NCBI GenBank assembly: GCA_963934385.1
Contig: CAWVYO010000001.1
Span: 4,765 to 68,764 of the forward strand
Direction: 5' to 3'
DNA length: 64,000 nt
DNA from: an uncultured bacterium
GTDB lineage: Bacteria; Myxococcota_A; UBA796; CAJQPC01
Below the pieces are notes generated by a model that saw nothing but the letters and a program-made list of their open reading frames with translations, had not been told where the DNA came from and ran no database searches. Of the stretch, positions 2,949-62,997 are shown piece by piece. The translations under genes were made by a program, and so were the position numbers. Within the stretch, counting starts at the first letter, position 1. Each line of letters starts with the position of its first letter.

Positions 2949-5369
<2,421 letters not shown>

Positions 5370-5449
5370 CTAATTCATACAAATAGATGCTCTCCAGTAA
5401 CAGGAATTAGGCTTTACTGCACTCATTATAAGAGACAATAATAACTACT

Positions 5450-6544: not shown

Positions 6545-6550
6545 AAGATA

Positions 6551-7666: not shown

Positions 7667-7750
7667 CTTAGGAGCCTCGTTGCTTATGGTTATGAGTTTA
7701 ATATAATTACTATTAATTTAATTAATCATCATCATCTATGGCTATTGAAG

Positions 7751-7759
7751 TGTGGATAA
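7751..7759 (-). promoter_or_regulatory. DnaA box, perfect consensus (TTATCCACA on the minus strand)
   Basis: The plus strand reads TGTGGATAA at 7751-7759. Confidence 0.75.
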
Positions 7760-7874
7760 CTTCTAAAATTGTAGTGATAACAACTGTTTAGATTGTAGTA
7801 TGTCTGAATATAGTTTGTATTACAGCCTATGGATTCCTATGAATAACTCGATGACCGAATTGTAACGGCTCTTT

Positions 7875-7883
7875 TTATCCTCA
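7875..7883 (+). promoter_or_regulatory. DnaA box-like site, TTATCCTCA (8/9 match)
   Basis: Read directly from the sequence; one mismatch to TTATCCACA. Confidence 0.45.
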
Positions 7884-7970
7884 GATTTTCACTAAGTGAA
7901 TCATAGAGTTGTACATGGTTTATCATTATGGTTGTAAATAGAAATATAAGGTTTTAATTTACGCAAAATC

Positions 7971-10215: not shown

Positions 10216-10475
10216 ATCTCTTAGGCTGGATAATATCACTACCAATTCGTTTTTATAGGTATTTTTTATCACCAATACTACCCAAATCGTGTCGATTTCA
10301 CCCGACTTGTTCAGCCTATGGTCTGGAAGCGATAAAGAGCTACGGCCCTTTTCGGGGTGTTTGGATGACGATTCGTCGTATTGGTCGATGTAATCCTTTT
10401 CACCCTGGTGGGTACGATCCAGTACCTTTGATTGATTTGAACAATCTGGAGTCGAATAATGTTGAAGAAGAATGA
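10212..10475 (+). CDS. yidD: Membrane protein insertion efficiency factor YidD
   Basis: '[58 protein letters not shown]'. The TTG start overlaps the rnpA TGA (TTGA at 10212-10215). Confidence 0.9.
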
Positions 10476-12150: not shown

Positions 12151-12217
12151 GTCATTTTTTTCGGCAGATAACTTAGGTCTATATTGAAGTAGACCACTTT
12201 CAAAAAGGACAGATACG

Positions 12218-13042
12218 ATGCAAACTAATATTCCAGAAGGCGTAGAACAACACACAGCAGAAGGCAACAATGTAGCAGAGGCGCTAAGTACAGTTGCTTC
12301 AGAGCTCGGCGTTGACAAATCAGGGCTCAAGTGGGCTGTTGATATGAGTTGGTTTAAGAACGAATTTGGTGGAGCCGTTTCTCGCGATACAGTTCGAATC
12401 ATAGCTTGGCAGCGCGATCCTATGGAGCTAGCGGTATGTGACCGAGCGACTGCTTGGATGACCGAGCTTCTCGAAAAGATGGAGCTAAATGGTACTGTCT
12501 CTTCAGCTATTGCTAATAGTGGAGAGGTAGTTGTTACTGTAAATGTTGAGCAGGCAGGTAGGTTTATTGGGCGCGGCGGCTCTACACTAGATGGAACAGT
12601 CCTACTCATGAACGAGACACTTTCAGAGGAGTTCGAGGGGCGCACCTTTAGGGTGAAGGTTCCAGATAACCGTGAGCGCAGTGATGATCGTGGTGACCGC
12701 AATGACCGCAATGACCGCAATGACCGCAATGATCGTGGTCATCGCAATGATCGCAATGAACGTGGTGGAAGACGTGAGAGAGGCGATCGTAACGACCGCG
12801 GTGGCAGAAGGCGTACAAATGAGGAAGATGAAGCTAGACTTCGCAGTATGACTGAAAAAATAGCCGAGCGCGTTTTAGAGACCGGCGAGGCCGAGATGAT
12901 TAGGAAAGAGATGAACTCTTATGATCGAAGAATTGTTCATATGGTCGTCAAGGACACCGCTGGTGTTGAGAGCCGTTCAATAGGCGATGGCGCTTCTAAG
13001 AACATCGAGATCTACCCTGAAGGCGATAGCTCAGAGGAGTAG
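12218..13042 (+). CDS. jag: Jag/KhpB-type RNA-binding protein (KH + R3H) with an inserted Arg/Asp/Asn-rich low-complexity linker
   Basis: KH-like 'VEQAGRFIGRGGSTLDG'. R3H region 'MNSYDRRIVHMVVKD..GVESRSIGDG'. Conserved position between yidC and mnmE. Confidence 0.8.
   Translation: MQTNIPEGVEQHTAEGNNVAEALSTVASELGVDKSGLKWAVDMSWFKNEFGGAVSRDTVRIIAWQRDPMELAVCDRATAWMTELLEKMELNGTVSSAIANSGEVVVTVNVEQAGRFIGRGGSTLDGTVLLMNETLSEEFEGRTFRVKVPDNRERSDDRGDRNDRNDRNDRNDRGHRNDRNERGGRRERGDRNDRGGRRRTNEEDEARLRSMTEKIAERVLETGEAEMIRKEMNSYDRRIVHMVVKDTAGVESRSIGDGASKNIEIYPEGDSSEE
12695..12730 (+). repeat. In-frame 9-bp tandem repeat GACCGCAAT x4 (encodes DRN x4), followed by degenerate copies
   Basis: Read directly. Lies inside jag, within the 'DRGDRNDRNDRNDRNDRGHRNDRNERGGRRERGDRNDRGGRRR' tract. 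Confidence 0.9.
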
Positions 13043-13047
13043 ATAAT

Positions 13048-14376
13048 ATGGACACCATTGTTGCTTGCGCCACCCCTTGGGGTCGCTCCGCTGTAGCTAT
13101 GGTTAGAATATCTGGTCCCAACGCTCTAGAGATTGTTGGGACCATCTGTGAACCGGTTGGTGGGATGCCTCCTTTCAGACGGGCTCGCCTTACAAAATTG
13201 AGGGACTCCAGAGGGTTGTTCGATGAGGGTCTGCTCACTATTTTTGAAGCCAAATCGTCGTACACAGGCGAGGACTCAGCAGAGATATCCACACACGGTA
13301 ACCCACTCATCGTGGAGCGATTGATATCAGCCTGTGTTAGCGTTGGTGCGAGGGTGGCTATCGAGGGTGAGTTTACTCGTCGAGCCTTTCTAAATGGTCG
13401 CCTTGATCTAACTCGTGCTGAGGCTGTTTTACAGGCGATTGACGCCTCGAGTACTCGCGGTCTAGAGGTAGCGAGATTAGGGCTTAGCGGTGAATTGGCC
13501 AAGTGGATCGATGGACTGCGGGAGCGTCTCACACATCTCATAGCCGAGCTAGAGGCTCGTCTTGACTATCCTGGTGAGGATCTAGTAGAAGATAATGAAG
13601 AGCAACTCTTAGCAGGACTTTTATCTATAGCAGCCGAATCAAGAGATGCTGCTAATACGTTTAAGGTGGGTCGAGTACTAGTTGATGGGGCTACTGTTGC
13701 TCTTGTTGGTCCAGTAAATGCGGGAAAATCTTCGCTGTTCAATAGACTAGGTGGCTCAGTTAGAGCGCTGGTATCGGATCAACCAGGGACTACTCGAGAT
13801 GTTGTAGAGCGCAGAGTAATGTTGGATTCTGTAGCTATTACTTTACTAGACACTGCTGGCGAACGTGGCGAAGCTCATGGTCTTGAAGAAGCGGGTATTG
13901 AGCTGGGACGTTCCCTTACAAAGAACGCCGATTTAGTGGTTGTAGTTGTACCAGCACACGACGCAGCATCTGGGAAAGGGGTCTTAGAGGCGACAAAAGG
14001 GCGTAACCGCATAATGGTAGCCAACCATTGTGACAGACCAGATGCAGATCAAAGTCTTGGCAATGAAATGTTTATGACCTCAGCTATTTCAGGTGCTGGT
14101 TTGAGTGAGTTATCCTCGGCGATTACGGAGGCTTTGGTGGGTGAAGCCCATGGAAATGCTGCCGTGGTTATCGCGAGTAGTCGTCAGAGAGACCTACTCT
14201 TGAAAGTAGAGACCAACGTTCGCGCCTCTATAGAGGCTCTCCAATCTTTCGCTGGTGTAGCGGTAGCGGCGGAAGAACTCTATGGTGCGCTTGAACCTCT
14301 AGATGCTATTATTGGTCGTGACACAAGAGAATCAGTCTTGGATGCTCTCTTTTCTCGTTTTTGCATTGGAAAATAA
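13048..14376 (+). CDS. mnmE: tRNA modification GTPase MnmE
   Basis: 'GRSAVAMVRISGP', G-domain 'LVGPVNAGKSSLFNRL' and 'LLDTAG', and the C-terminal 'CIGK' motif. Confidence 0.95.
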   Translation: MDTIVACATPWGRSAVAMVRISGPNALEIVGTICEPVGGMPPFRRARLTKLRDSRGLFDEGLLTIFEAKSSYTGEDSAEISTHGNPLIVERLISACVSVGARVAIEGEFTRRAFLNGRLDLTRAEAVLQAIDASSTRGLEVARLGLSGELAKWIDGLRERLTHLIAELEARLDYPGEDLVEDNEEQLLAGLLSIAAESRDAANTFKVGRVLVDGATVALVGPVNAGKSSLFNRLGGSVRALVSDQPGTTRDVVERRVMLDSVAITLLDTAGERGEAHGLEEAGIELGRSLTKNADLVVVVVPAHDAASGKGVLEATKGRNRIMVANHCDRPDADQSLGNEMFMTSAISGAGLSELSSAITEALVGEAHGNAAVVIASSRQRDLLLKVETNVRASIEALQSFAGVAVAAEELYGALEPLDAIIGRDTRESVLDALFSRFCIGK

Positions 14377-49291: not shown

Positions 49292-50626
49292 ATGTGGTTT
49301 TACTTGTTGGCATGTGGTGCTGGTGTTGATACCAGCGACAGTTTTGATACATCTGTGATCGTCACAGATGATACCGGTGTGGTGGTGGAGACATCCCTCT
49401 CCAATCAGTATGGTTGGGTCTCTACAGAGACAGGTGTGGCTACAGGGGCAGCGTTTGCAGACGTAGATGGTGACGGGTATCAAGAGATGATCGTCTCTTA
49501 TGGCAATGACATCCAGCGCGGTCCCATAACCGTTCACGATAATATTGACGGTGAGCTTCAGAGGAGCGCATCTTGGGTATCTGATAATTACCACTACCAC
49601 GGTAAGCTAGACGTAGGCGATGTCAACGGAGATGGCTGGGTTGATTTGGTGGTCAGCCGATTTTTAGGGGACTCTGGCTTTAGTGAGCCTGGTGGCGTCG
49701 ATCTCTACCTAAATCAGGGCGGTTATTTTGAGTCTACCCCCTCATGGGAGTATTCTGGCGTATACAGTTTTTCTTTGGCCCTTGGTGATGTAGATTTAGA
49801 CGGCGATCTCGATTTGGCTGTGGCCGTAGGCGAGTCTTACTACAACTTGCCAGATAGGTCGCTATTGTTTGAAAACTCAGGCGGTACATTCGGGAGTCAA
49901 CCATTATGGCAAACAGAGGCCGACAGGCACAGTTTTGATGTCTCTTGGGCCGACTTTGATAGTGACGGAATGTTGGACTTAGCGTTTGCCAATGGCGGCT
50001 CGGCTCATACAATTTACCTCAATCAAGGAGGCGGGTTTGGCGACTCTCCAGACTGGGAGGCGTCAGGTGACCCAGAGAGCTTCGAGGGAAACAGTTTGGC
50101 CTGGGGTGATATAAACGGCGACAACACCATTGACCTAGTAGTTACTGAGAACATGCAGCAAGGAGGGGCTGGTGACGTTGTAGGTTGGTGCGGTCCATCA
50201 TTTGCTCAGTGCTGGAGATCTGAAGATGCTCCACTCTTTCAGTCATCAGTGACCTTCGAGGATATAGACGCCGATGGAGATGGCGATCTAGTTGTTGGTT
50301 CGTGGTGGGGTACTGTTAGAGTCTACGAAAATGAGTCAGGGACTATCGCTACTTTACCGAACTGGGAGACAGAGAACGACCTTGTTGTGGAGTCAATTGT
50401 TTGGGCAGATATTGACGCATCTGACCAAGCGATAGAGGTGCTTCACGGAGATGGTCTATTGCGAGTTCCAGGCGATGTTTTAGACGTTACAGGTGGAGTG
50501 GCTGCTGGTGGTTGGGCTACAGGCCCAGGGGAAATAACTGTGATCTACCAGGTACCATTTAAGAGAGACATGGCTGTCACAAATTGGGAGAATCAGATTG
50601 GTAACCCAATCTACTTCTGGGAGTAA
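49292..50626 (+). CDS. FG-GAP/VCBS repeat lipoprotein
   Basis: Lipobox 'LLAC/G'. Repeated 'GDVNGDGWVDLVV', 'GDVDLDGDLDLAV', 'ADFDSDGMLDLAF', 'GDINGDNTIDLVV', 'EDIDADGDGDLVV'. Confidence 0.8.
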   Translation: MWFYLLACGAGVDTSDSFDTSVIVTDDTGVVVETSLSNQYGWVSTETGVATGAAFADVDGDGYQEMIVSYGNDIQRGPITVHDNIDGELQRSASWVSDNYHYHGKLDVGDVNGDGWVDLVVSRFLGDSGFSEPGGVDLYLNQGGYFESTPSWEYSGVYSFSLALGDVDLDGDLDLAVAVGESYYNLPDRSLLFENSGGTFGSQPLWQTEADRHSFDVSWADFDSDGMLDLAFANGGSAHTIYLNQGGGFGDSPDWEASGDPESFEGNSLAWGDINGDNTIDLVVTENMQQGGAGDVVGWCGPSFAQCWRSEDAPLFQSSVTFEDIDADGDGDLVVGSWWGTVRVYENESGTIATLPNWETENDLVVESIVWADIDASDQAIEVLHGDGLLRVPGDVLDVTGGVAAGGWATGPGEITVIYQVPFKRDMAVTNWENQIGNPIYFWE

Positions 50627-50798
50627 GAAGCTCGATTTACTGGGTATTCTCGCTATAGTCTGGATAATTATAGCTGTTGCTATAACGATATTTATGGCTC
50701 CGCGATTGGGCTTGAGAGGATGGGTATGGCTCATTGTCCATGACCTCTTATGCCTAGTGGGTTCGGTTCATCAACTCAGTCGCACCGGTTATAAATAG
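50598..50798 (+). CDS. Possible small two-TM membrane protein in a convergent gap (speculative)
   Basis: 66-aa ORF (TTG start) with two hydrophobic stretches, 'LLGILAIVWIIIAVAITIFMA' and 'GWVWLIVHDLLCLVGSV'. It overlaps both flanking gene ends by about 25 nt. Confidence 0.25.
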   Translation: MVTQSTSGSKKLDLLGILAIVWIIIAVAITIFMAPRLGLRGWVWLIVHDLLCLVGSVHQLSRTGYK

Positions 50799-52302
50799 CG
50801 ATCCTTTCGTATGGTTCGTCGGAGAACCACCACGGAGAGTAGGTCTCTATAGGAACCATACCCGCTATAATAAAGGAGTGATAATTAGCTGCGGCACTAC
50901 GGCTGTGGACTCTTGGACCGATCCACCAGTCAGGCATCGTGAGGCTATCTATTAGTTCTAGGCAGATGTCTTGGCTTGGGGGTTGAGGCCATGGATTTTC
51001 AGCTACGGCGTGTATGAACCTAGTCTCGCCATCCTCGTCTATTGGGGTCCAGGCGAAATCTTCTAAGTAGTGTTGCCATCCCCAGTGACCAGAGAAAGAA
51101 CCACGCCCTTGGTCAGACACTAAGAAAGCCGCTTGCCTGTGACTCTGAGCCATGGCCATATCGTCCACTGCCAGCCCCAAAGAGAGCCCTATAGAGGTTA
51201 CAATGGCTGTTTTCGTCCAGACAGAAGATCTATTCAGTCGCTGTGTCTGGTGTATGGCTGCCAGCAGGAACGCAGGCAAGAAAGGAAGCCAGTATCTAGA
51301 GGCGCTAAACCGGAGGGTCAATAAAAACAGAGCCCCACCAACAGCCCAAGCTGCTAGGAACCTTGTGTTTTGATCAACCATCTTCAATGTGGAGAAGGCA
51401 GCAGCTCCAGACGCAGTAAACAGAACAGTGATGGCGGTCTGTCCTGTGGAAAGCTGCGACACCTCTCCTGCCAACAGCCCTAAGCCAACCCCTATAATTG
51501 CAAAAGGAATAGCCCTCTTTGAGATGGACAATATGGGTAACAGCCCCACTCCCCCCAACATAGCTAGGCTGGCTATGCCCTTCCTCAACATATCTCGGGG
51601 GCTCTCTGACACGCTTTGAAAGGCAGTCATTGCGACTATATGAACTTGCCCATAGGCTAGCATATCGTGTAAAGCTAGGGCCAAGATCGGGACAAAGACC
51701 AACAGAGTCTCTCTTATTCGTTTCTTCTGAATTCCGGCTAACAACAAGAGCGGTATAAAACAGATACCAGAGTACTTAAAGAGTACGCTCGTGCCTACTA
51801 ATAGAGCCCAGCCATAACCATGGCCTCTCTTGGAGCTCAGGAACCCGCCTAGACCCGCGACAACACAAGCCAACAGAGGCAGATCTGGAGTGAGACTGTG
51901 TGTCGATAGAACAAAGAGAGGCGATGACAGTAATAAGAGAGCTGCGAGTTTCCCAGAACCAAGAAGCTCCTCTCCTAGTCGCCGCATTCCCCAAATGGCT
52001 AAGAGGACCCAAGGGAACATCATTAGATGCATAAGCCACACTGGTCCATCTGATACCGCGGCTAACCACCAGCCTATGCCAGGGGGGTTTGATAGAACAT
52101 CAAACGCTGATTCTAAAGTCCCTTGCCAATTAATCTCTACAGCGTGAGGTCTCCACATGTCCGCACGAGCCCCTTCTGCCAGACGAATGAAATTAGCGTC
52201 GTCTACGTGAACGGCTTTCCCTATGAATGGGAAAAACAATGCCGCAGCCAATAGATACAGAGCTAGTAATGGTGATTTTGTAAGCACAAAGCAGCCTATC
52301 AT
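50776..52302 (-). CDS. GT-C fold glycosyltransferase-like membrane protein (ArnT/PMT_2-like), second copy
   Basis: More than 10 TM helices. First loop 'VHVDDANFIRLAEG' and 'LSNPPGIGWWL'. C-terminal soluble domain. Same overall layout as 45294-46904. Confidence 0.6.
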   Translation of the reverse strand: MIGCFVLTKSPLLALYLLAAALFFPFIGKAVHVDDANFIRLAEGARADMWRPHAVEINWQGTLESAFDVLSNPPGIGWWLAAVSDGPVWLMHLMMFPWVLLAIWGMRRLGEELLGSGKLAALLLLSSPLFVLSTHSLTPDLPLLACVVAGLGGFLSSKRGHGYGWALLVGTSVLFKYSGICFIPLLLLAGIQKKRIRETLLVFVPILALALHDMLAYGQVHIVAMTAFQSVSESPRDMLRKGIASLAMLGGVGLLPILSISKRAIPFAIIGVGLGLLAGEVSQLSTGQTAITVLFTASGAAAFSTLKMVDQNTRFLAAWAVGGALFLLTLRFSASRYWLPFLPAFLLAAIHQTQRLNRSSVWTKTAIVTSIGLSLGLAVDDMAMAQSHRQAAFLVSDQGRGSFSGHWGWQHYLEDFAWTPIDEDGETRFIHAVAENPWPQPPSQDICLELIDSLTMPDWWIGPRVHSRSAAANYHSFIIAGMVPIETYSPWWFSDEPYERIAIYNRCD

Positions 52303-52384: not shown

Positions 52385-54271
52385 ATGGAGAATAGAGATT
52401 TTGACATTGTCGTGGTTGGAGGAGGTCACGCTGGGTGTGAAGCGGCCGCTGTAGCTGCTCGACTGGGGGTGCGTGTTGCTTTGGTTACCTTTGATACAAA
52501 GGCTAATGGGAGGCTTTCGTGCAACCCCGCAATAGGTGGGCTCGCCAAGGGAAATTTGGTGCGAGAGTTGGATGCCTTGGGTGGTATAATGGCTCAAGTG
52601 ACCGACGCCTCGACTATTCAATTTAGGCACCTCAACACTCGAAAAGGCTTAGCCGTTCGTTCATCGAGAGCTCAGGTCGATATTGATCTTTACCCAAAAG
52701 CTATGCAAGAGGCGCTAGGTTCAATTTCTAACTTGGAGATTATTGAGGACGAGGTGGTCTCTATTACGACTAATGGCGCTGAAGACAATCTCTCTATTAG
52801 TTCTGTCGGACTTGGGTCTGGAGGAGAGCTCACGTGTAGTTCAGTAGTGCTTACAACGGGTACATTCCTGTCCGCCATGCTCCATTGCGGAGACTCCGCC
52901 ACCATGGGTGGAAGGGTTGGCGAGGGTTCAGCGATGAGTTTGGGGGAGGCTATGAAAAGCCTCGGGGTGAAATTAGCTCGTTTGAAAACGGGAACGCCGC
53001 CTCGCTTGAGGGCTGACAGTATTGATTTCTCTCAGATGGAACCACAAGAGAGTGTTGGTGGACACTTCTCCTTCTCCCCTCCAGACAAAATACTTCCCAG
53101 TATCATCTGTCATATGGTTTACACCAATGAGAAGACCCACGACATTGTCCGCGAAAACTTGGCTAAATCGTCTGTATATGGTGGTGGGGTCAACAGCGTA
53201 GGTCCCAGATATTGTCCGTCAATAGAGGACAAGGTGGTAAAGTTTCCAGAGCGATCAAGGCACCTGTTGTTCCTAGAGCCAGAGGGGCTAAACACCGATA
53301 GAATATACGTGAACGGGCTATCAACTTCGATGCCAGCGGATATACAGGAGCTTGTTTTACGTTCTATGCCAGGGATGGAAAACGCTGTTATCGAACAGGC
53401 TGGTTACGCTGTAGAGTACGATTATTCCGATCCGCGTCAGCTAGGTCACGATCTCCAATTTAAGGGTCTAAAAGGGCTATACATGGCGGGTCAGCTAAAC
53501 GGGACTTCTGGTTATGAAGAGGCCGCAGTTCAAGGCTTTATTGCTGGCGTGTGTGCGGCTCACTCCGTTCTTGATCGAGAGCCACTTATTTTAGGGAGAG
53601 ATGAGGCCTACATTGGTGTGCTTATAGACGATCTTGTCACTCGAGGTGTTGGTGGAGAGCCATATAGAATGTTTACCTCTCGTGCTGAGCACCGGCTAAG
53701 CCTTAGAGAGGACAACGCTGATCGCAGGCTCATGAAGAGAGGTCGGGATCTAGGGCTGATTAACGACGAGCGCTGGCTTAGGTTTGAGCAGAAAATGGAG
53801 GCTATTAATCGCTCAAAGGACACGTTGTCTAAAAAGGTAAGTCCAACCAAGGATATGATCGAAAAGTTTAAAAATGCTGGGCTTGGAGAACTCAATAAAC
53901 AGGCGACTGTAGAGCAGCTTTTAAGACGCCCTGAGTATACCTATGAGTTGCTTAGTAGAGTCATAGATCTTCCCGAGTTGACAGCTGAAGAGGCGGAGCA
54001 GGTCGAGACCGACGTGAAATATGCGGGATATCTTCAGCGTGAGAAGGTTCGTGCCGAACAAGCTAAGAAGATGTCGGGAGTATCCCTTATTGGGGTTGAC
54101 TTTGCCTCGATAGCCGGTTTGAGTAACGAGGTTATTCAGAGATTAGCTCGAGCTTGTCCAGCGACATTAGACGCCGCGTCTAGGATTCCTAGCGTGACAC
54201 CAGCGGCCATTACAGTATTGGCACTATTTATGGCTCGTAGTCCAAGATCTAGTAAGAACCAACCGCTATAG
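52385..54271 (+). CDS. mnmG: tRNA uridine 5-carboxymethylaminomethyl modification enzyme MnmG (GidA)
   Basis: 'FDIVVVGGGHAGCEAA' (FAD binding), 'RLSCNPAIGGLAKG', 'GLYMAGQLNGTSGYEEAA'. 628 aa. Confidence 0.96.
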   Translation: MENRDFDIVVVGGGHAGCEAAAVAARLGVRVALVTFDTKANGRLSCNPAIGGLAKGNLVRELDALGGIMAQVTDASTIQFRHLNTRKGLAVRSSRAQVDIDLYPKAMQEALGSISNLEIIEDEVVSITTNGAEDNLSISSVGLGSGGELTCSSVVLTTGTFLSAMLHCGDSATMGGRVGEGSAMSLGEAMKSLGVKLARLKTGTPPRLRADSIDFSQMEPQESVGGHFSFSPPDKILPSIICHMVYTNEKTHDIVRENLAKSSVYGGGVNSVGPRYCPSIEDKVVKFPERSRHLLFLEPEGLNTDRIYVNGLSTSMPADIQELVLRSMPGMENAVIEQAGYAVEYDYSDPRQLGHDLQFKGLKGLYMAGQLNGTSGYEEAAVQGFIAGVCAAHSVLDREPLILGRDEAYIGVLIDDLVTRGVGGEPYRMFTSRAEHRLSLREDNADRRLMKRGRDLGLINDERWLRFEQKMEAINRSKDTLSKKVSPTKDMIEKFKNAGLGELNKQATVEQLLRRPEYTYELLSRVIDLPELTAEEAEQVETDVKYAGYLQREKVRAEQAKKMSGVSLIGVDFASIAGLSNEVIQRLARACPATLDAASRIPSVTPAAITVLALFMARSPRSSKNQPL

Positions 54272-54279
54272 GGGCGTCA

Positions 54280-54822
54280 GTGCTTAATCTTACACCTCTT
54301 GAGCAGGTCCACTTTGATACATTAACAAAGTGGAGAAAAGCTATGGATCTAGTGGGACCTGGCCCGCTGGAGCCACATTTTGAGGACGCAAGAAGAGCAG
54401 TGGGTTGGTTAGCTGCAGAAGGTAGTTGGGCTGATCTAGGTTCTGGAGCGGGGTTCCCTGGGGTGGCGTTGGCTGCTTGCTATCCAGAGGTTTCAGTTAC
54501 GCTGGTGGAGTCTAGACAGAAACGAGTGATGTTTTTGAGAGAGGTGGTTTCGAGGGGTGGAGTAGATAACGTGAACATTTTTCACGGTAGAAGCGAGACT
54601 TTGGAGAAACGTAGCTACGACGGTGTCATTTCTCGAGCATTTAGACCACCAGAGGAGTTCTTGGCAGAGGCGAGAGACCTGTTGGTTATGGGAGGTACAG
54701 CTGTGTTGATGCTGGCTCTTGGAGAGCCGCCGACCGTGGAGGGACTTGAGCTGTTCCACGTGGAACAATACCCTCTTGATGACAGGACCCGTAAGGCTTG
54801 TGGGTATAGGAAGATAGCCTAA
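54280..54822 (+). CDS. rsmG: 16S rRNA (guanine527-N7)-methyltransferase RsmG (GidB)
   Basis: 'WADLGSGAGFPGVALA' (SAM motif), 'LVESRQKRVMFL'. Follows mnmG. GTG start. Confidence 0.9.
   Translation: MLNLTPLEQVHFDTLTKWRKAMDLVGPGPLEPHFEDARRAVGWLAAEGSWADLGSGAGFPGVALAACYPEVSVTLVESRQKRVMFLREVVSRGGVDNVNIFHGRSETLEKRSYDGVISRAFRPPEEFLAEARDLLVMGGTAVLMLALGEPPTVEGLELFHVEQYPLDDRTRKACGYRKIA
54752..54767. promoter_or_regulatory. parS-like perfect palindrome TGTTCCACGTGGAACA (inside the 3' end of rsmG)
   Basis: Read directly. 14/16 match to the general parS consensus TGTTTCACGTGAAACA; the two differences are symmetric, so the palindrome is kept. Identical to the site at 60722-60737. Confidence 0.75.
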
Positions 54823-57293
54823 GTACGGCGACGGTTGACTAAACCAAGGGCTATTAGAAGTAATAAAGGAAGCCCTGAGTCGCTAGTCTGTGAGGAACAA
54901 CCACCACAGGTATCTTTATTGTCATCACCTGTGTCATCACCTGTGTCATCACCCGTGTCACCAGAGGTCGGTATTGGCAAGGGATCTCCGTCACCAAAAA
55001 CCTCAATAGCGTCTATGTGAAGACCTTCCCCAGATGTTTGAGTTACGACCAGTGTTATATCTTTCCAGCCGCCACTGTTTACTCCACCATTCGGTCCACT
55101 GTGGGGACCAGAGTATAGCTTAGTACCATCACCCGTAAGCTCCTCTACCTCCACTCCATCTATATAGACTGCGATCATGCCGTCGCCCTCTCCTACTCCT
55201 AAAATTGAGAAAGTGTCCCCTGAGAAGCTGAAATCAAGCGTATCCCCCTCCTGAAGTAAGTAGCCACCCATGAACCCTTGATCGTGATCCTCATATGTGT
55301 CGCATTCCTCGTGTTCGTCACCTCCAGAGGCGTGGCAATCTATGTGATACGTCCCCTGCTCAAACCGTGAATATCTGGGTAACTGAGCCCAAGACTCTCC
55401 TCGCGAGTTCGTCCAAAATGTTCCGCCTGTTGTGGATACAACGGCGATCCCCGTCTCTTGGAAGTTTGGGGCAGTGGAGATAGCGTATGGTGCAGGAGCC
55501 ATAGGCTCTCCAGATGGTTCCCAGTTGAGCCCACCATCGATTGATAAGAATACCTGTCCCGCTCTATTCACTACTAGGAGTGTTCCATCGTCAGCTTGAT
55601 CAAATAGGCGAGGTCGACCCGTAGGAGGAGTCTCGGGATTATTCCAGGTTGTGCCGTTGTCGTTAGAATAGATAATTCCCGATGTAGGGGAGGCGAACAG
55701 GAGGCGAGTGGTCTCACCATCCACCCACAAGGCTCCGCCCCCAGCAGTCTCTAGCGCTCCCTCATGAACCCACAGCCAGCTGTCTCCGTCGTCTGTGGAG
55801 ATCAACATGCCGGCAGGCATATCTACGACAACGGCGATCATGTCATCAGTTTCAAAGACATCTCTGGGGACAGCGCCATCCCAAGTGTCGTATAGTGACG
55901 GCACTTCCTCCCAAGAAGCTCCCTGATCAACAGTGAATGCGAGTTTGCCAACCAACCCTTGGGTGTCGTCCTCTCCAATAGCCCAAACGCGATGTCCTTG
56001 GGCTCTGTAGTTTCTGACTCTCTCCATTGGAATGTTGTCCACACTGGACCATGTGTATCCACCATCGAAGCTCTCGTGAGGCCAAGTGGATCCAGAGTAG
56101 TAGACATGGTCGTTGTCTCCAATGTTCGGATCAGCGAGCACATCGTAGGTGTACGGTCCGACTAAGCCCGTAGCAGACCCCTCCCAGCTCAGCCCTCCAT
56201 CGTCAGTCCAAAAAGCGCCTCCGCCATAGCCTCCTGTGAATATTCTGGAGTCAAATGGGAAATCAGGAGATATCGATATTGATCGTGAAAAGTCCCCCGG
56301 TAGAAGTTTTGTCTCGTGCCAACTGTTACCGCCGTCTACGGAAGAGGTGATACCGCTGAATGTTGCTATTGTACCCACATCTCCAGTCATACCTATGTAT
56401 ACGACCCCCTCTTGTGGATCTACTGCGTTACCTATTCCGCCAAAGGGTACCCAAACTCCCGTGTCCATGTAGCTCCAGCTTTCACAGGAGTCATCTGATA
56501 CAAAGAGCCCCTCTCTAGCATTTGCCGCGATTAACCTACCGTTTGGTAGAGCTACTATCTCTACAATGTGGGTGACGTAGTCGTTTCCTGTAGAGATAGG
56601 CATAGAGCCGCAAGCGATCCAAGAGTCTCCGTTGTCGTCAGACGCTGCAACCTGCTGATTCGTTCCCGCGAAGACTCTGCCGTTGTACTCGGTAACAGAG
56701 AGAACGTTGCGACCTCCTGAAAGAGGACTGAAGCGCTCAAACATTGAGCTTGGTCCCTCTGCTCGCCAGATAGCGCCCCCGGCATCCACGGCTAAAATAG
56801 TGCCTGTGCTGCCCCCATCAGTGTGTATTGAGACTAGATCGCTCGCCAACCCCATTCTGCTGAATGACGAGAGGTCTGAAATAGGAGCGTGATAAAGCCC
56901 TATACTGGAGGCGACATAGAGTTCGCCGTCAATGACCTCGAACTCACGCGCTATCCCACCAACATCAAGGGCGTTGTGGTCTAGCCACTCCCCCTCTTCG
57001 TTTTGCTGCCAAACAGAGCCGTCCTTTCCCAACAGCAGTAGCCCGAACAAGGTGTCTTCAGCGTCTACAAGAGAGTCATCAGTGGCTGGACTGTACTGGT
57101 AGTCCCAGTGCCGCCCAAAGTCCTCGGAGCGCATCAATTGAGAGACATCATGGGGGTCTATTATTGCCCAGGCCACGCCACTAATCTCAAAATCGATAGA
57201 GTTTGCATATGCCTTAGCTACCGCGTGGGGTCTGTGGGCTTGTGCTGGTGAGGACAAAAATAACAGACTAAGCGAAAATAAAAATGTAGACAT
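54819..57293 (-). CDS. BNR/Asp-box repeat (sortilin/sialidase-like beta-propeller) secreted protein with a C-terminal tripartite sorting signal
   Basis: At least 10 'SxDxGxxW' boxes (SDDNGDSW, SVDGGNSW, TDDGGLSW, SFDGGYTW, TVDQGASW, STDDGDSW, SNDNGTTW, SIDGGLNW...). Start moved to ATG 57293, which gives signal peptide MSTFLFSLSLLFLSSPAQA/H. The C-terminus reads '...DTCGGCSSQTSDSGLPLLLLIALGLVNRRRT'. Confidence 0.85.
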   Translation of the reverse strand: MSTFLFSLSLLFLSSPAQAHRPHAVAKAYANSIDFEISGVAWAIIDPHDVSQLMRSEDFGRHWDYQYSPATDDSLVDAEDTLFGLLLLGKDGSVWQQNEEGEWLDHNALDVGGIAREFEVIDGELYVASSIGLYHAPISDLSSFSRMGLASDLVSIHTDGGSTGTILAVDAGGAIWRAEGPSSMFERFSPLSGGRNVLSVTEYNGRVFAGTNQQVAASDDNGDSWIACGSMPISTGNDYVTHIVEIVALPNGRLIAANAREGLFVSDDSCESWSYMDTGVWVPFGGIGNAVDPQEGVVYIGMTGDVGTIATFSGITSSVDGGNSWHETKLLPGDFSRSISISPDFPFDSRIFTGGYGGGAFWTDDGGLSWEGSATGLVGPYTYDVLADPNIGDNDHVYYSGSTWPHESFDGGYTWSSVDNIPMERVRNYRAQGHRVWAIGEDDTQGLVGKLAFTVDQGASWEEVPSLYDTWDGAVPRDVFETDDMIAVVVDMPAGMLISTDDGDSWLWVHEGALETAGGGALWVDGETTRLLFASPTSGIIYSNDNGTTWNNPETPPTGRPRLFDQADDGTLLVVNRAGQVFLSIDGGLNWEPSGEPMAPAPYAISTAPNFQETGIAVVSTTGGTFWTNSRGESWAQLPRYSRFEQGTYHIDCHASGGDEHEECDTYEDHDQGFMGGYLLQEGDTLDFSFSGDTFSILGVGEGDGMIAVYIDGVEVEELTGDGTKLYSGPHSGPNGGVNSGGWKDITLVVTQTSGEGLHIDAIEVFGDGDPLPIPTSGDTGDDTGDDTGDDNKDTCGGCSSQTSDSGLPLLLLIALGLVNRRRT
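54921..54956 (-). repeat. In-frame 12-bp tandem repeat x3 (encodes TGDD x3) just upstream of the sorting signal
   Basis: The plus strand reads GTCATCACCTGT GTCATCACCTGT GTCATCACCCGT. Confidence 0.9.
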
Positions 57294-57425
57294 GAGCCCA
57301 CTGTTGCTTTTAAATTTGTGCAATGTCAAACGATCCGGATTTTTTTCTTTGAGCGACATTAAAATTGTGGAGATATTATGCCGATTATGATTAGTCAGTG
57401 GGCTTGAAACACTTGTGAGGACTTT

Positions 57426-59105
57426 ATGAGAGAATTTCGTTTAGCGCTTTTTGCACCTGTAATAGCTGTGACTCTATTTGGGTGTGGCGGAGGAAAGGAT
57501 GACACCTCTATCGTCGGTACTGGAATCGAAGATACGGGGGAGGTCGATCCTGGTGCTCCTGCTTTGCTTGAATCTGGCGAGGCTGTAGTATGCGCGGAAC
57601 CAGAGCTCAGGACCACCTTAGGCCCGTACTTTGAACTAGACGCAGGGGCGAATTGGGCTAGTCAGGTTGATCCCTCTACCCAGTACGGTCGAGGCGTAGC
57701 TGTCGCCGATTTCAGTGGGGACGGTGCTTACGACATATTTATACCAAATCTAGGTCGTGACCAGCTTTATATAGACCAAGGTGACGGCTCTTTCATTGAC
57801 GAGGCTGTAGACCGGTTTGACACTTTTAGTCAGATGGTCACTGAGCGGTCGCAGGCAGCGTATGCTGTGGATGTGGATGACGACGGTGATCTAGATCTGT
57901 TCGTGGCTAATCGTGGCAATATCAACCGAGTGCACCTCAACGACGGATCGGGTAATTTTACTAACGCCAATGTGGGAATGGCAGCCCAGGGCGCGGCTTC
58001 ATTGGCCGCTACATTTATGGACATCAACGGCGATGGACATCTCGATATGTTTGTCTCAGCACATTTTTTAGGTCCTTCGGAGGGATGGAGCTTGGAAGAT
58101 CCAGGTGATGCCACACCAGCCGAGCTGTACCTCTCAAATGGAGACGGCACATATAGAGATATCTCCCATAAGCTTCCAGAAGCAGCACTTCTTGGGTACA
58201 CCAACGCCGCTGGATTACTTGATATCGACCAAGACGGTCTTGTAGAGCTTTATGTAGCTAACGATTTTGGTGCCCTTACTCACCATAATCATCTCTACCG
58301 GATAACTCCGAGCGGTAACACGGTGGTCCTTACAGATATTTCTGAGGAGACTGGTACGGAGATGCAGATGTTTGGCATGGGGATAGCATACGCAGATCTC
58401 AATGGCGATACTCTACCGGAGCTTCTTCTCACATCTTGGGATGAGTTGATTTTGCTTGAGAGTACCCCTGGTGCTCCATACTACGACTCCGCTGCATCTC
58501 GGGGTATTACTCACGAGTACGGTCTACGGGACGTAGCGTGGGGTCCAGAATTTGGTGATCTAGACAACGATGGCGATGAAGACCTCTATGTGGTCTACGG
58601 CTATCTTGAAGGTGGCGAAGAGGATGGGTTGGCTAATCCGGTTGAGCAACCAGACGCGCTGTTCGTACAGGAAGAGGATGGAAGCTTTACGCAGGAGGCA
58701 GAGGCTTGGGGGCTCGATAATAAGGGAGTAGGACGCGGCTTTTCGTTTGTAGATCTCAATTTTGACGGGTTCTTGGACATCATAACAAGAGATCTAGAGG
58801 GTCCAACGGTTATTACTATGGCTCGATGTGACAGCTCTACTTGGCTCGAGTTGAGGCTTCACCAGCCAGCGCCCAACGTAGGGGCAATTGGGGCAAGAGT
58901 AGAGGCGTACGTTGACGGTCGAGTGATGACAAGGTGGGTAGTTTTAGGCGCTAACAACTTCTCTGGTAGCTCTATGACAGACCTTCATTTTGGGCTTGGC
59001 GGTGCAGAATATTTGGATCTTTTGGTTGTACATTGGCCCGATGGTGAAGTATCTAGGTTTGAAAAGGTAGATGGAAACCGTCTAATTTCAATAACAAAGG
59101 AGTAA
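57426..59105 (+). CDS. CRTAC1-family lipoprotein (FG-GAP repeats + ASPIC/UnbV domain)
   Basis: Lipobox 'TLFGC/G'. 'ADFSGDGAYDIFI', 'VDVDDDGDLDLFV', 'MDINGDGHLDMFV', 'GDLDNDGDEDLYV'. The C-terminal 'GAIGARVEAYVDGRVMTRWV...DLHFGLGGAEYLDLLVVHWPDG' is ASPIC/UnbV-like. Confidence 0.85.
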   Translation: MREFRLALFAPVIAVTLFGCGGGKDDTSIVGTGIEDTGEVDPGAPALLESGEAVVCAEPELRTTLGPYFELDAGANWASQVDPSTQYGRGVAVADFSGDGAYDIFIPNLGRDQLYIDQGDGSFIDEAVDRFDTFSQMVTERSQAAYAVDVDDDGDLDLFVANRGNINRVHLNDGSGNFTNANVGMAAQGAASLAATFMDINGDGHLDMFVSAHFLGPSEGWSLEDPGDATPAELYLSNGDGTYRDISHKLPEAALLGYTNAAGLLDIDQDGLVELYVANDFGALTHHNHLYRITPSGNTVVLTDISEETGTEMQMFGMGIAYADLNGDTLPELLLTSWDELILLESTPGAPYYDSAASRGITHEYGLRDVAWGPEFGDLDNDGDEDLYVVYGYLEGGEEDGLANPVEQPDALFVQEEDGSFTQEAEAWGLDNKGVGRGFSFVDLNFDGFLDIITRDLEGPTVITMARCDSSTWLELRLHQPAPNVGAIGARVEAYVDGRVMTRWVVLGANNFSGSSMTDLHFGLGGAEYLDLLVVHWPDGEVSRFEKVDGNRLISITKE

Positions 59106-59111
59106 GAGTTC

Positions 59112-60704
59112 ATGGTGTTTGATCGGTTTTTGGTTGTCGCGACCTTGGCTGTGCTGGTTAGTTGCGGTAAGGGAGTCGATGGTACTGGGGAAACTGGAGA
59201 GACCAGTACCACCACTGACACCACTGACACCACTGACACATCAACAGGGACAGAGACTGGTTCAACAGTGGTTACACCCCCAGCGGGCTTGGATTTGGTC
59301 TCAGTAGATGTCGATAAATTTGCAGAGTTGGGCTACGAGCTCGCAACATATGAGCTTGGTGAGGATTACGAGGTTCAGTACACAACCCTCACGGGTGCCA
59401 GACCGTTTTTCCATGTATTTAGACCAATTGGCGGTACAACCGATTCGCTGGACATCTTAATGTGGTTTCATGGGGGACATATAGGTAACGATGAGGTGGA
59501 GATACCGAACAATTGTTCTGATGAGACAATTAGGTACAACATCAACCTAATCTTGGGTACCGGATCTATGGTCACCGGGTTTGTATCGGAGCGTAATTGG
59601 GCTCTAGTAATCCCGAGCAATAATTGGTGTGATGGTGGGGTTGGTTTGGGTAGCGATGATCCAGTCGATCCTGAGAATCACTGGGGTTGGGTACATAGCA
59701 AGAACGTTTTAGATCTAGCTACCGGGGGATACCTTGGGTTTAATGCAGGAGGTGAGCTTTACTCATGGGGTACGTCTGCAGGGGCGACATCGTCTGCGAC
59801 GGCGGCATACCGTTACACTGGTTTTACAGGAATGATAGTAGATTCGGGCGGCTGTGATCAGTTTTTGATGCACGATCGCGACCCCGGCATCATGTCACAT
59901 ATATTTGGAGGCGATCCCTACCTGCCCGATGGTACGGAATCTCAATTTTTCTCAAATTATCAAGAGGCGTCATGCACATGGCAGGTGGCGAATGGTCTCC
60001 AGGCTCCAATATTTATTCCCTATAATCAGGAGGATCTAGCTGTCCCTATTGAGCAGCCTCAGGCACTGTTGGCAATTCTTGAAGAGCACTACCCAAGCGC
60101 TGGGATCAATTACGGTAGTCATGACTACAACCACCTCTCTCCAGGTGGAAATTATCACGTTCAGACTCGATCTAAAATCATCCCGTTTGGTTACTCAACA
60201 GGTCTAATGATGCAATTTCTTGAAGGAAATTCTATTTATTGGCGAGAGGCAGAGTGGGGTTGTTGGAGCCAGGACTGTAGCGTGGGAACCGTTCGTGTAG
60301 GAGGCGAAGATTGGCAGAATTACTCCAACGCAGGTGGAGTTGAGATTACTTCAGAAGAGGACTCTGGCACGGCTATGCACTCTCGCCTTGACCCAAACAT
60401 AGATAATGGTGACACTGTTGAGGCGGTTATTGTTTTGAAGGCATTAGAGCTGGCTGATGTAGACGATCTTACTGAAGTACTACGCATGACCTACACTGAT
60501 AACAGTGGAACTAGTGAGCGAGTTTTTACCGCGGGTGATTTCGCGCCAGAGAGCCAAGCTACTGATCAAGAGTTCTTGGATCAGTATCTAGACAGCCGCC
60601 TAACATTTGTCCCAGAAGATGTTGATTCGGGGTATGTCTCGTTAGATTACCTTGGAGCAGGAGCGTTTAGGCTAGACGCCATCGTTTTTGTAGTCTCCAA
60701 ATAG
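59112..60704 (+). CDS. Putative alpha/beta-hydrolase lipoprotein with a C-terminal beta-sandwich-like domain
   Basis: Lipobox 'VLVSC/G'. 'ILMWFHGGHIG' (HGG oxyanion-hole-like) and 'YSWGTSAGATSS' (GxSxG nucleophile elbow). Family not otherwise recognised. Confidence 0.5.
   Translation: MVFDRFLVVATLAVLVSCGKGVDGTGETGETSTTTDTTDTTDTSTGTETGSTVVTPPAGLDLVSVDVDKFAELGYELATYELGEDYEVQYTTLTGARPFFHVFRPIGGTTDSLDILMWFHGGHIGNDEVEIPNNCSDETIRYNINLILGTGSMVTGFVSERNWALVIPSNNWCDGGVGLGSDDPVDPENHWGWVHSKNVLDLATGGYLGFNAGGELYSWGTSAGATSSATAAYRYTGFTGMIVDSGGCDQFLMHDRDPGIMSHIFGGDPYLPDGTESQFFSNYQEASCTWQVANGLQAPIFIPYNQEDLAVPIEQPQALLAILEEHYPSAGINYGSHDYNHLSPGGNYHVQTRSKIIPFGYSTGLMMQFLEGNSIYWREAEWGCWSQDCSVGTVRVGGEDWQNYSNAGGVEITSEEDSGTAMHSRLDPNIDNGDTVEAVIVLKALELADVDDLTEVLRMTYTDNSGTSERVFTAGDFAPESQATDQEFLDQYLDSRLTFVPEDVDSGYVSLDYLGAGAFRLDAIVFVVSK
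59211..59237 (+). repeat. In-frame 9-bp tandem repeat ACCACTGAC x3 (encodes TTD x3)
   Basis: Read directly; lies in the linker after the lipobox. Confidence 0.9.
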
Positions 60705-60721
60705 TACTCAGCCTTATGACG

Positions 60722-60737
60722 TGTTCCACGTGGAACA
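60722..60737. promoter_or_regulatory. parS-like perfect palindrome TGTTCCACGTGGAACA (intergenic, 160 bp upstream of parA)
   Basis: Read directly; identical 16-mer to 54752-54767. Confidence 0.78.
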
Positions 60738-60897
60738 GTAAAGAATAAACACCGTAGGGCAAAATAATCCCACCAAAGGTCTTGCCACGTCAAGACTAAA
60801 TGTGTAGAGTACATTATTCCTTCGCGGGCGACAGGTCTTCACGTCTCCCCATTTTGGTTCAACGAGCCGCTCACATACATTTATTCAAAGAGATCTA

Positions 60898-61755
60898 ATG
60901 ACCGTAATTTCATCTAACGGATTTTCCCGTATAGTCTCAATCGCCAACCAAAAAGGGGGGGTTGGGAAAACGACAACATCTGTGAACCTCGCCGCTAGCC
61001 TGGCTCACTTAGGGCAAAAGACACTGCTTATTGATCTAGATCCACAGGGCAACGCATCTTCTGGCTTGGGTTTACCTAAAGAGGATAACGAACAAGGAGT
61101 ATATGATGTACTTATGGGGGACGTTTCGACAGCGGAAGAGATCCACTCTATAATTAAGGAGACCAACTCTGAGAACCTATATGTCCTCCCAGCAACAAGA
61201 GATCTGCTGGGAGTAGAGGTAGAGCTGACTAACAGTACTAATCGAGAGACTCGTCTCAAGTCAGCGCTAAAAAAGATCGTTTCAGAATATCAATGGGTGA
61301 TTCTAGATTGCCCCCCGTCTCTCGGGTTTCTGACAATTAACGCTTTAACAGCATCAGATGGACTCCTGGTACCAGTGCAGTCTGAATATTACGCACTAGA
61401 AGGGTTGGGAGAGCTTCTAAGGACCCTCTCTGTTGTAAGAAAAGGGCTAAACCCACAGTTAAAACGCGATGGGATTCTGCTTACAATGCACGATGGGCGG
61501 AACAACCTTTGTGGTCACGTTGAGGATCAGGTGCGAGAGGTCTTTGGTTCAGAGGTGTTTGACACCGTCATTCCTCGCAATGTGCGACTAGGCGAAGCTC
61601 CATCGTATGGGTGTTCAGTGTTGGAGTACGATCCGTTCTGTGCGGGTGCTGTTGCTTACTTGGATGTGACCAAAGAGCTACTAGCGAACCACTCAATATC
61701 TATAATCAATGACTCGATTGAGTCTCAACCAGCTATTAGCCTGGAGGTCATGTGA
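60898..61755 (+). CDS. parA: Chromosome partitioning ATPase ParA (Soj)
   Basis: Deviant Walker A 'IANQKGGVGKTTTSVNLA', 'LLIDLDPQGNAS', 'VILDCPPSLG'. Confidence 0.95.
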   Translation: MTVISSNGFSRIVSIANQKGGVGKTTTSVNLAASLAHLGQKTLLIDLDPQGNASSGLGLPKEDNEQGVYDVLMGDVSTAEEIHSIIKETNSENLYVLPATRDLLGVEVELTNSTNRETRLKSALKKIVSEYQWVILDCPPSLGFLTINALTASDGLLVPVQSEYYALEGLGELLRTLSVVRKGLNPQLKRDGILLTMHDGRNNLCGHVEDQVREVFGSEVFDTVIPRNVRLGEAPSYGCSVLEYDPFCAGAVAYLDVTKELLANHSISIINDSIESQPAISLEVM

Positions 61756-62672
61756 ACGTAGTGTCTACAAAATTCAACGATAAAGGTAAAGGGCGTATGG
61801 GAAACATGAGGGGTTTAGGTCGCGGTTTAGCCGCGCTAATACCCGACGATCTAGTGTCAGATACACCAGTATATGATGGTGATCGTATTGTAGAGGCCTC
61901 CCTCGCTGAAATAATACCCAACCCAGAGCAACCAAGGGTGTCATTCTGCGAAGAGACCCTACGCGAGCTGTCACAGTCTATAGATGAACACGGTGTATTA
62001 CAGCCCCTTATCGTCCGTAGAGGAGAGAACGGCGGCTACATTCTTATCGCCGGTGAGCGCCGTTTTAGAGCTGCTGGTTTGGCGGGATTAAAAAAGGTTC
62101 CAGTTGTCGTTCGAGACAACATGGACAGCGCTATTCAGCTCGAATTAGCTCTTGTTGAGAATCTCCAACGTGAAGACCTCAACCCAATCGATGGTGCAAA
62201 GGGCTACCTTAGACTGGCGGAGAAGTATGGATATACACAAGAGCAGATTTCAGCCAAGGTTGGCAAAGACCGAGCGACTGTAGCCAACGCAATGCGCTTG
62301 CTAAAACTCCCCGAAGAAGTTTTGGGTCTTATTTCTAGTAGTCGCCTGTCAGCCGGACATGGAAAGGCTTTACTCGGTGTTTCTAAGAAATCAGATCTGC
62401 GAAGACTGGTGGCACAGGTATTAACTGGAGGGCTCTCTGTTAGAGCTACAGAACGTCTAGTAAAGAGCCTAAGTCCCTCTTTTAGAAGAGCGACTTCTGA
62501 GCGTGAGCCCGACAAAGTTCTAGCGTACGCCTCAGACATGTTGACCCGATCACTATCCACACAGGTAAAGATCAGCGGTCGCGCAAAGGGTGGTGGGAAA
62601 ATAGTGATTGATTATCACAGCAATGAAGACCTAGAGCGTCTGTTAGAACACCTCAGGCAGAGCGGTGAGTAA
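61752..62672 (+). CDS. parB: Chromosome partitioning protein ParB (Spo0J)
   Basis: 'GLGRGLAALIP', 'IIPNPEQPR', 'LQPLIVRR', 'ILIAGERRFRAA', HTH 'TQEQISAKVGKDRATVANAMRLLKL'. GTG 61752 overlaps the parA TGA; ATG 61797 is an alternative start. Confidence 0.93.
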   Translation: MNVVSTKFNDKGKGRMGNMRGLGRGLAALIPDDLVSDTPVYDGDRIVEASLAEIIPNPEQPRVSFCEETLRELSQSIDEHGVLQPLIVRRGENGGYILIAGERRFRAAGLAGLKKVPVVVRDNMDSAIQLELALVENLQREDLNPIDGAKGYLRLAEKYGYTQEQISAKVGKDRATVANAMRLLKLPEEVLGLISSSRLSAGHGKALLGVSKKSDLRRLVAQVLTGGLSVRATERLVKSLSPSFRRATSEREPDKVLAYASDMLTRSLSTQVKISGRAKGGGKIVIDYHSNEDLERLLEHLRQSGE

Positions 62673-62997
62673 TCTGGGTCGCCCCTTGAATGCGCTGTTG
62701 GGACGAGGCGCTACATATGAAGGAGATCTATCCTTTGAGGGAAGGGTTCGAGTGGATGGAGTCTTTAGGGGACGAATTTACACGGATGAGCTTTTGGAGG
62801 TCGGTGAATCGGGTCGCATTGAAGGTGAAATTGATGCCGAAGAATTGATCGTTGCAGGCGTCGTTGACGGTAAAGTTCGCGTTCGAGGTATTCTCACCGT
62901 AGAGTCAACAGGCGCCCTCTTGGGAGAGATTGATGCTACCTCAATGGTCACAAGAGACGGGGCTAAAATTAAGGCCACCTGCCTTGTAGGCAGTTGA
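62665..62997 (+). CDS. Bactofilin (DUF583 beta-helical cytoskeletal protein)
   Basis: 'GDLSFEGRVRVDGVFRGRIYTDELLEVGESGRIEGEIDAEELIVAGVVDGKVRVRGILTVESTGALLGEIDATSMVTRDGAKI' is the repetitive bactofilin core. The GTG start overlaps the parB 3' end by 8 nt. Confidence 0.85.
   Translation: MSNLGRPLNALLGRGATYEGDLSFEGRVRVDGVFRGRIYTDELLEVGESGRIEGEIDAEELIVAGVVDGKVRVRGILTVESTGALLGEIDATSMVTRDGAKIKATCLVGS

Follow-up and report, generated by a model that had tools for sequence, protein, structure and literature searches.

A 64-kb stretch of DNA from an uncultured marine Myxococcota-like bacterium (contig CAWVYO010000001.1; henceforth the window, meaning the whole 64,000 nucleotides analyzed) contains two identical 16-bp palindromes, termed here parS-a and parS-b, on either side of three genes for secreted proteins (C1, C2, and C3) that separate rsmG from parA. 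We conclude, with a probability of roughly 85%, that these palindromes are the loading sites of ParB in the chromosome-partition system encoded by the adjacent parA and parB, that they descend from an ancestral pair, and that an old three-gene module lies between them. The feature is an ordinary two-site chromosomal centromere of a known kind and entails no new mechanism.

The palindrome, TGTTCCACGTGGAACA, occurs exactly twice in the window (Table 1), with both copies perfect and identical to each other, and a scan of the 64 kb allowing up to three mismatches recovered no further match; dinucleotide-preserving shuffles of the same sequence yield a mean of 0.18 matches at this stringency. It agrees with the degenerate parS consensus TGTTNCACGTGAAACA at 15 of the 16 positions and with TGTTTCACGTGAAACA at 14 of them, and its assignment to the parS consensus tGTTNCACGTGAAACa is through the 15/16 match to the degenerate form. 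A preliminary description of the window had reported the two palindromes, the lack of a third copy, and the presence of only three genes between the sites; the mismatch scan bears out the former claims, and the open reading frame (ORF) listing together with profile searches the latter. Its figure of 14/16 for the consensus match stands against TGTTTCACGTGAAACA but is too low for the degenerate form.

The same 16-mer constitutes parS2 and parS3 of Pseudomonas aeruginosa, which are the sites that ParB binds most tightly in that organism (PMC4368675), and the parS of Pseudomonas putida (PMC7022226). It is also the sequence of the two identical parS sites near ori in Bdellovibrio bacteriovorus, which ParB binds and releases in vitro in a manner dependent on cytidine triphosphate (CTP) (bioRxiv 10.1101/2023.06.27.546657). 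The parS consensus of Myxococcus xanthus, TGTTCCACGTGGAACG, which is represented by 22 sites, differs from it at one end position (PMC7022226).

In the window, the pair adjoins a cognate parA-parB operon, whose ParB displays the CTPase patch, the helix-turn-helix (HTH), and the dimerization domain, with the GERR.RA motif of the patch region invariant in 21 relatives. The sites are origin-proximal, lying on the right replichore, 45 kb (parS-a) and 51 kb (parS-b) from the replication-origin region, as indicated by the dnaA-dnaN-recF-gyrB cluster and the GC skew. Specifically, the gyrB-recF-dnaN-dnaA genes (2949-9368, minus strand) face yidC-jag-mnmE (10459-14376, plus strand), and the 6-9 kb section of the window shows both the minimum in guanine-plus-cytosine content (G+C; 0.38) and a sign change in the GC skew. 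A scan for DnaA boxes found modest enrichment, with one perfect box at 7751 in the dnaN-dnaA spacer; because the boxes form no tight cluster, the origin was placed via the dnaA/dnaN genes and the GC skew instead.

Orthologous loci, fetched via homologs of ParB and of the three intervening ‘cargo’ proteins, represent nine lineages of the clade including that of the window. Among the contigs of representative genomes, the ParB peptide patterns used matched only distant ParBs (≤52% identity), and a metagenome scan based on the ParB alignment employed patterns common to all ParBs and returned mostly distant phyla; about 100 of the loci so obtained were reused as a background survey. Five lineages (the window, L029, L115/L122, L119, and L120/L121) possess the C1(-)-C2-C3 block as in the window, the contigs of L119 and L120/L121 being short ones that end in or before parA and display parS-b but no rsmG. 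In four others (L031/L032, L033, L116, and L117/L118) rsmG lies directly beside parA, which agrees with the preliminary statement that the three genes interrupt an rsmG-parA adjacency.

A parS in the 3′ end of rsmG is found in 7/7 of the lineages whose contigs include that end (nine sampled), and in all six with rsmG in its ancestral orientation the distance from its start to the end of the rsmG stop codon is 70 nt (67 nt in L116). A second parS is seen 97-190 nt upstream of parA, just ahead of a promoter-like block, in 9/9 lineages, albeit in a degenerate form in L119 (CGTTCCCCGTGGAACA). The cargo-bearing L029, L115, and L122 have both sites at orthologous positions, and parS-b is also present in L119 (the degenerate copy) and L120. 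Every cargo-less locus likewise possesses both sites, here merely 83-270 bp apart, with the second placed 97-123 nt upstream of parA. The sites are thus conserved wherever the contig of a lineage extends far enough to include them, across a G+C range of 48-72%. Since the cargo-less relatives carry both sites at orthologous positions, the pair appears to be ancestral, with the sites probably some 80-270 bp apart in the ancestral arrangement, compared to 5,970 bp in the window. The term ‘insertion’ is apt only if the standard is the adjacency of rsmG and parA that prevails more broadly in bacteria. In the background survey of unrelated ParB loci, TGTTCCACGTGGAACA recurs frequently as a parS variant upstream of parA, and rsmG-parA fillers of 1.3-2.2 kb containing parS are likewise common (L019, L039, L061, L077, L111).

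The sequence context of each site is itself conserved. In the window, parS-a, which starts 70 nt ahead of the final nucleotide of the rsmG stop codon, falls within the last 23 codons of the gene. In an alignment of the last 50 rsmG codons from lineages spanning 48-72% G+C, the codons of the site read NTG-TTY-CAC-GTG-GAA-CAN in 6/7 lineages; the synonymous positions of CAC and GTG are invariant in all seven, and GAA is retained in six (CAA in L116). In contrast, the neighboring conserved residues of RsmG (such as L-L and G-G) are encoded by many synonymous codons. Such freezing of synonymous positions while the adjacent codons vary is the pattern expected of a DNA site superimposed on a reading frame. 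At the other end, parS-b ends 161 nt ahead of the ATG of parA, and in the clade alignment the interval from this site to a conserved downstream block, CTCTTGCCAYGTCAA...TGTGTA, is 5-45 nt. The promoter-like element identified by the consensus scan coincides with the invariant columns CTTGCC..GTCAA..TGTGTA of this alignment. From this proximity to the promoter, ParB bound at parS-b could autoregulate parAB.

Beyond the conserved pair, the clade displays several variations on the theme. Extra perfect copies of parS are found 2.5-7 kb upstream of rsmG in L116 (2018, 3725, and 6400) and L117/L118 (3098), and both junction sites of L116 are degenerate, which indicates that the number and quality of parS sites turn over within the clade. 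One cargo-bearing sub-lineage has a third, in-frame parS-like site inside C2, namely GGTTCCACGTGGAACT or GGTTTCACGTGGAACT, encoding G-S/F-T-W-N-F (Table 1); the homologous position in the window reads GGTAACACGGTGGTCC. A further rearrangement of the same junction is seen in L035 (6892-9073; ParB 56% identical), where the inversion of rsmG (8415-9065, minus strand) includes its embedded parS (8461), and mnmG is separated from rsmG by two small, mutually paralogous ORFs for membrane proteins.

The block itself appears to be old and to have evolved in place, because its proteins are highly diverged, its composition is like that of its neighbors, and it is devoid of a recombinase, transfer RNA (tRNA) gene, or border repeat. 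Between the window and L115 the cargo proteins are 36-45% identical and the core proteins 56-62%, while the corresponding figures for L029 are 69-84% and 81-85%. Its G+C (0.49-0.52) and G+C at third codon positions (GC3; 0.45-0.50) equal those of the neighboring genes. The ORF listing and profile searches found no integrase, transposase, or recombinase among its three genes, and no tRNA or border repeat beyond the 16-mer was found at the block.

How the block came to its present distribution was addressed with a tree of concatenated MnmG, ParA, and ParB (25 taxa, 1,073 columns, neighbor-joining (NJ), 300 bootstraps), with Dayhoff-6 recoding as a check. The window and L029 group with the cargo-less L031 and L033 (98%; 92% after recoding), L115 groups with the cargo-less L116 (94%; 83% after recoding), and the cargo-bearing taxa are monophyletic in 0/300 bootstraps, i.e., the block is patchily distributed on the core-gene tree. 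This patchiness suggests, as the simplest reading, that the block was present in the common ancestor and deleted at least twice. A candidate route for such a deletion, excision by recombination between the two parS sites, was rejected: such an event would leave behind a single site and cut short the tail of rsmG, and the cargo-less relatives retain both sites and the full tail. The same groupings could be explained, instead of by ancestry and loss, by two independent arrivals of the block or by an ancient lateral transfer that replaced the rsmG-parA region. We deem this rather unlikely, given that it is mechanistically improbable for one trio of genes to have entered the same interval of ~20-50 bp twice with identical order and orientation, whereas loss needs only deletion, and that NJ trees may be distorted by the 48-72% spread in G+C.

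It is also conceivable that the module has been retained exactly between the parS sites ever since the divergence of lineages whose core proteins now share under 60% identity, and that its location matters, either because ParB occupancy or origin-proximal replication timing and gene dosage tune its expression with the cell cycle, or because gene cassettes preferentially land in, or are exchanged at, the short interval between the parS sites. The latter idea fits the rsmG inversion and the two small ORFs of L035, the additional 200 bp in L116, and the fillers of 1.3-2.2 kb in distant phyla, but on the whole we regard these proposals as improbable. Still less probable is recent acquisition of the block as a mobile element or genomic island with the centromere as its target. 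Its content of exclusively secreted or lipoprotein ‘accessory’ genes, its patchiness on the core-gene tree, and the presence of a C2 paralog elsewhere in another genome (L123) might evoke such an element. However, beyond its lack of an integrase, transposase, tRNA, or terminal repeat and its neighbor-like G+C and GC3, it shows the same genes, order, orientation, and site in the five block-bearing lineages sampled (L119 and L120/L121 being short contigs), its protein identities fall to 36-45% in step with the core genes, and its gene ends are adapted to the locus, with the C1 stop overlapping that of rsmG. The block thus does not qualify as a member of a mobile element or genomic island.

The preliminary description had offered, as one option, a three-gene insertion that split a single rsmG-parS-parA junction and duplicated parS, whether in the manner of a target-site duplication or as a duplicated junction, and had named contiguous rsmG-parA loci with both sites as an outcome that would refute its inference. 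That the sites are identical and bracket the block, and that rsmG and parA are adjacent in related lineages, made this attractive. However, exactly that outcome was observed: L031/L032, L033, L116, and L117/L118, with contiguous rsmG and parA, already hold both sites, at the same rsmG codon and upstream of parA. Further, the two copies are alike only within the 16-mer itself: the flanks show no meaningful resemblance, a 24-nt extension being 88% identical only by chance flanking bases, and the contexts differ, with one site in a coding sequence and the other at a promoter. We therefore consider this scenario refuted, with only a very slender residual chance. Finally, in other organisms CACGTG cores also serve as binding sites for other protein families, but a reading of the palindromes as sites for such a regulator, or as products of chance, has next to nothing to commend it, as all 16 positions match experimentally validated parS sites, the pair lies beside parAB and is conserved at both positions across the clade, and the chance expectation is far below one.

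Returning to the reading of the palindromes as an ancestral pair of ParB loading sites, certain points weigh against it or temper its details. Although the 16-mers are to all appearances canonical parS beside canonical parAB near the origin, their role as parS in this host is deduced from sequence comparison, and the count of two covers 64 kb of one genome only. The F-H-V-E peptide encoded by parS-a is likewise conserved, such that part of the DNA conservation could stem from a protein-level constraint, and the two constraints are not fully separable. As for the history of the block, the tree used NJ only, with three markers, in a clade whose G+C ranges from 48% to 72%, and the direction of change may have been either one ancient gain followed by losses or repeated gain.

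On the preferred account, the ancestral pair would have comprised parS-a in the end of rsmG and parS-b just upstream of the parA promoter, and the old three-gene module between the rsmG stop codon and parS-b would have pushed them to their present spacing. By established ParB biology, CTP-bound ParB dimers would form closed clamps at each parS and then slide outwards, so that both sites together would build one partition complex covering the 6-kb block and its flanks, which ParA would then segregate. The spacing is predicted to give a single complex inclusive of the three genes, because chromatin immunoprecipitation (ChIP) in other species has revealed ParB peaks that extend over tens of kilobases (up to 50 kb; PMC7022226). 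Each site is probably redundant as a loader, since one high-affinity site suffices in P. aeruginosa, where any one site supports partition, there are ten sites in total, and ParB is non-essential (PMC4368675). The cargo genes would be passengers in the ParB zone, and nothing indicates their involvement in partition. Two other suggestions of the preliminary description are hence upheld but lose their novelty: that the three genes would lie inside the ParB-covered region is plausible yet unremarkable, and that the dual sites form an extended centromere is true but trivial, as centromeres normally comprise multiple sites with genes in between (PMC7022226).

Table 1. Coordinates of the centromere locus, its flanking genes, and related features (positions in the window unless a locus is named).
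Feature	Position	Strand	Description
dnaA	7971..9368	-	Bac_DnaA matches; dnaN, recF, gyrB adjacent
PMT-like membrane protein, 508 aa	50776-52302	-	weak precomputed PF13231 (PMT_2) match, on the identical gene in L001
mnmG (gidA)	52385..54271	+	TIGR00136, 736 bits
rsmG (gidB)	54280..54822	+	PF02527, 94.6 bits; stop overlaps stop of convergent C1
parS-a	54752..54767	.	exact match to TGTTCCACGTGGAACA; within 3′ end of rsmG coding region, encodes L-F-H-V-E-Q
C1, 846 aa	54819..57359	-	Sortilin-Vps10 and BNR_2 matches; secreted beta-propeller; MYXO-CTERM signal
C2, 559 aa	57426..59105	+	CRTAC1-like lipoprotein; FG-GAP_3 124 bits (4 stretches), UnbV_ASPIC 57 bits; lipobox
C3, 530 aa	59112..60704	+	lipoprotein of small unannotated family; putative serine hydrolase N-terminal part and C-terminal beta-sandwich
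parS-b	60722..60737	.	exact match to TGTTCCACGTGGAACA; intergenic, upstream of parA promoter
parA promoter-like element	60782..60810	+	TTGCCA-17-TAGAGT; consensus scan; clade-conserved block
parA	60898..61755	+	AAA_31 211 bits, CbiA 96 bits; Walker A KGGVGKTT partition ATPase
parB	61752..62672	+	ParB_N, HTH_ParB, ParB_C; TIGR00180 177 bits; GERRFRA
bactofilin	62665..62997	+	PF04519, 86 bits; overlaps parB end by 8 nt
third parS-like site, L115	6565-6580		within C2 gene
third parS-like site, L122	10850-10865		within C2 gene
third parS-like site, L120	2266-2281		within C2 gene

All three proteins of the block have signal or lipoprotein leaders. A gap of 6 bp separates the C2 gene from that of C3, one of 66 bp separates C2 from the divergently oriented C1, and the stop codons of C1 and rsmG overlap. 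In addition to its beta-propeller domains, C1 shows a sub-threshold match to the F510_1955 glycosylhydrolase family. Its C-terminus belongs with the MYXO-CTERM signals (TIGR03901.2), if marginally (20.9 bits against a cut-off of 20), and also scores 22.7 bits with JDVT-CTERM, which is under the cut-off of 27 for that model. Just ahead of this signal, a 12-nt tandem repeat in three copies (54920-54963) encodes an acidic DTGD linker. C2 is a member of the CRTAC1/ASPIC-UnbV FG-GAP proteins, with both domains scoring above their cut-offs.

C3 is more enigmatic in that sequence and profile searches of Pfam, NCBIfam, and the PDB returned no matches. Its family comprises 96 clusters at 50% identity among 1.84 billion protein representatives, with the motifs WFHGGH and WGTSAG invariant, and its gene adjoins one coding for an FG-GAP/ASPIC protein in every readable context. 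The alpha/beta-hydrolase label is suggestive and derives from the HGG and G-T-S-A-G motifs only. The AlphaFold2 (AF2) model has a predicted local distance difference test score (pLDDT) of 53, falling below 50 in the N-terminal part, such that only the C-terminal beta-sandwich is confident; it is to this sandwich that all Foldseek matches were obtained, with jelly-roll folds resembling carbohydrate-binding modules (CBMs) at a TM-score of ~0.2. The preliminary description had also drawn attention to a similar motif at the ends of two cargo proteins, C1 and C3. As evidence of homology this was rejected, the BLASTP comparison being non-significant (E = 1.0) with the motifs unaligned; the motif probably represents the final strand of beta-sandwich domains that are unrelated or only very distantly related.

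Elsewhere, L123 (3234-13159) encodes a C2 paralog (42-43% identity) amid sulfatase and arylsulfotransferase genes, along with a distant C1-like sortilin/BNR protein. This cluster lies far from any parS and is not another centromere block. Its context hints that C1- and C2-type proteins act on sulfated glycans.

The gene order around the block in the window is mnmG, rsmG, C1(-), C2(+), C3(+), parA, parB, bactofilin. The ParB protein is encoded on three public contigs, of which the longest measures 69.5 kb, and a C2 protein identical to that of the window bears a Tara label. ParB relatives at ~60% identity are labeled ‘Myxococcota bacterium’ by NCBI. The neighborhood beyond the block appears stable, because the genes for an FG-GAP repeat protein (444 aa) and the PMT-like membrane protein upstream of mnmG (49292-52302) are both syntenic in L031, L033, and L122; the latter gene alone is seen at the cut edge of L029 and L115. 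On the other side, the bactofilin gene follows parB in most members of the clade and is missing in L117/L118. Bactofilin genes are reportedly linked to parAB in M. xanthus too. The 204-aa neighbor of the bactofilin gene yielded no profile match, and no PadC-like adaptor was identified beside the bactofilin. Near the other end of the window, two adjoining, overlapping genes for ArsA-like ATPases (436 and 304 aa, minus strand) lie beside gyrB (859-2912).

Among characterized systems, the closest published parallel is that of Bdellovibrio, in which, according to Kaljevic et al. (PMC10547168), the locus reads bd3908 (a ribosomal RNA (rRNA) methyltransferase), bd3907 (a protein of unknown function), bd3906 (parA), bd3905 (parB), and bd3904 (bactofilin). 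Thus, the two loci share a duplicated, identical 16-mer upstream of parAB, an rRNA methyltransferase gene further upstream, a non-partition gene before parA, and a bactofilin gene after parB. They differ in that the window has three interposed genes (6 kb) in place of one and has parS-a inside the rsmG coding sequence, and the Bdellovibrio sites are experimentally supported while those of the window are known from sequence. The oriC-proximal parS1-parS4 of P. aeruginosa (Jecz et al., 2015; PMC4368675) resemble the window in that several origin-proximal sites, interspersed with ordinary genes, extend over kilobases; the positions of the sites relative to rsmG differ, as does their number (ten versus two in 64 kb). 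M. xanthus, a phylum-level relative of the window lineage, has a multi-parS cluster, a bactofilin-organized partition, and a near-identical consensus (Iniesta, 2014; Lin et al., 2017; summarized in PMC7022226), again with more sites (22 versus two in the 64-kb window).

In conclusion, our observations locate the centromere in an uncultured, Myxococcota-like lineage of marine bacteria and point to a conserved two-site parS design, which has little import beyond annotation. They also provide a worked example of identical repeats that bracket a block of genes and yet are no insertion footprint. Of minor interest is the apparent persistence of a frame-embedded parS at one codon position across a deep clade, which would place this segment under a double constraint, that of the protein and that of ParB binding. 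Comparable in interest is the long-term residence, with patchy loss, of a secreted-protein module exactly between both sites. It suggests that genes can sit stably between centromere sites over long evolutionary time, in keeping with ParB zones that cover ordinary genes (PMC7022226).

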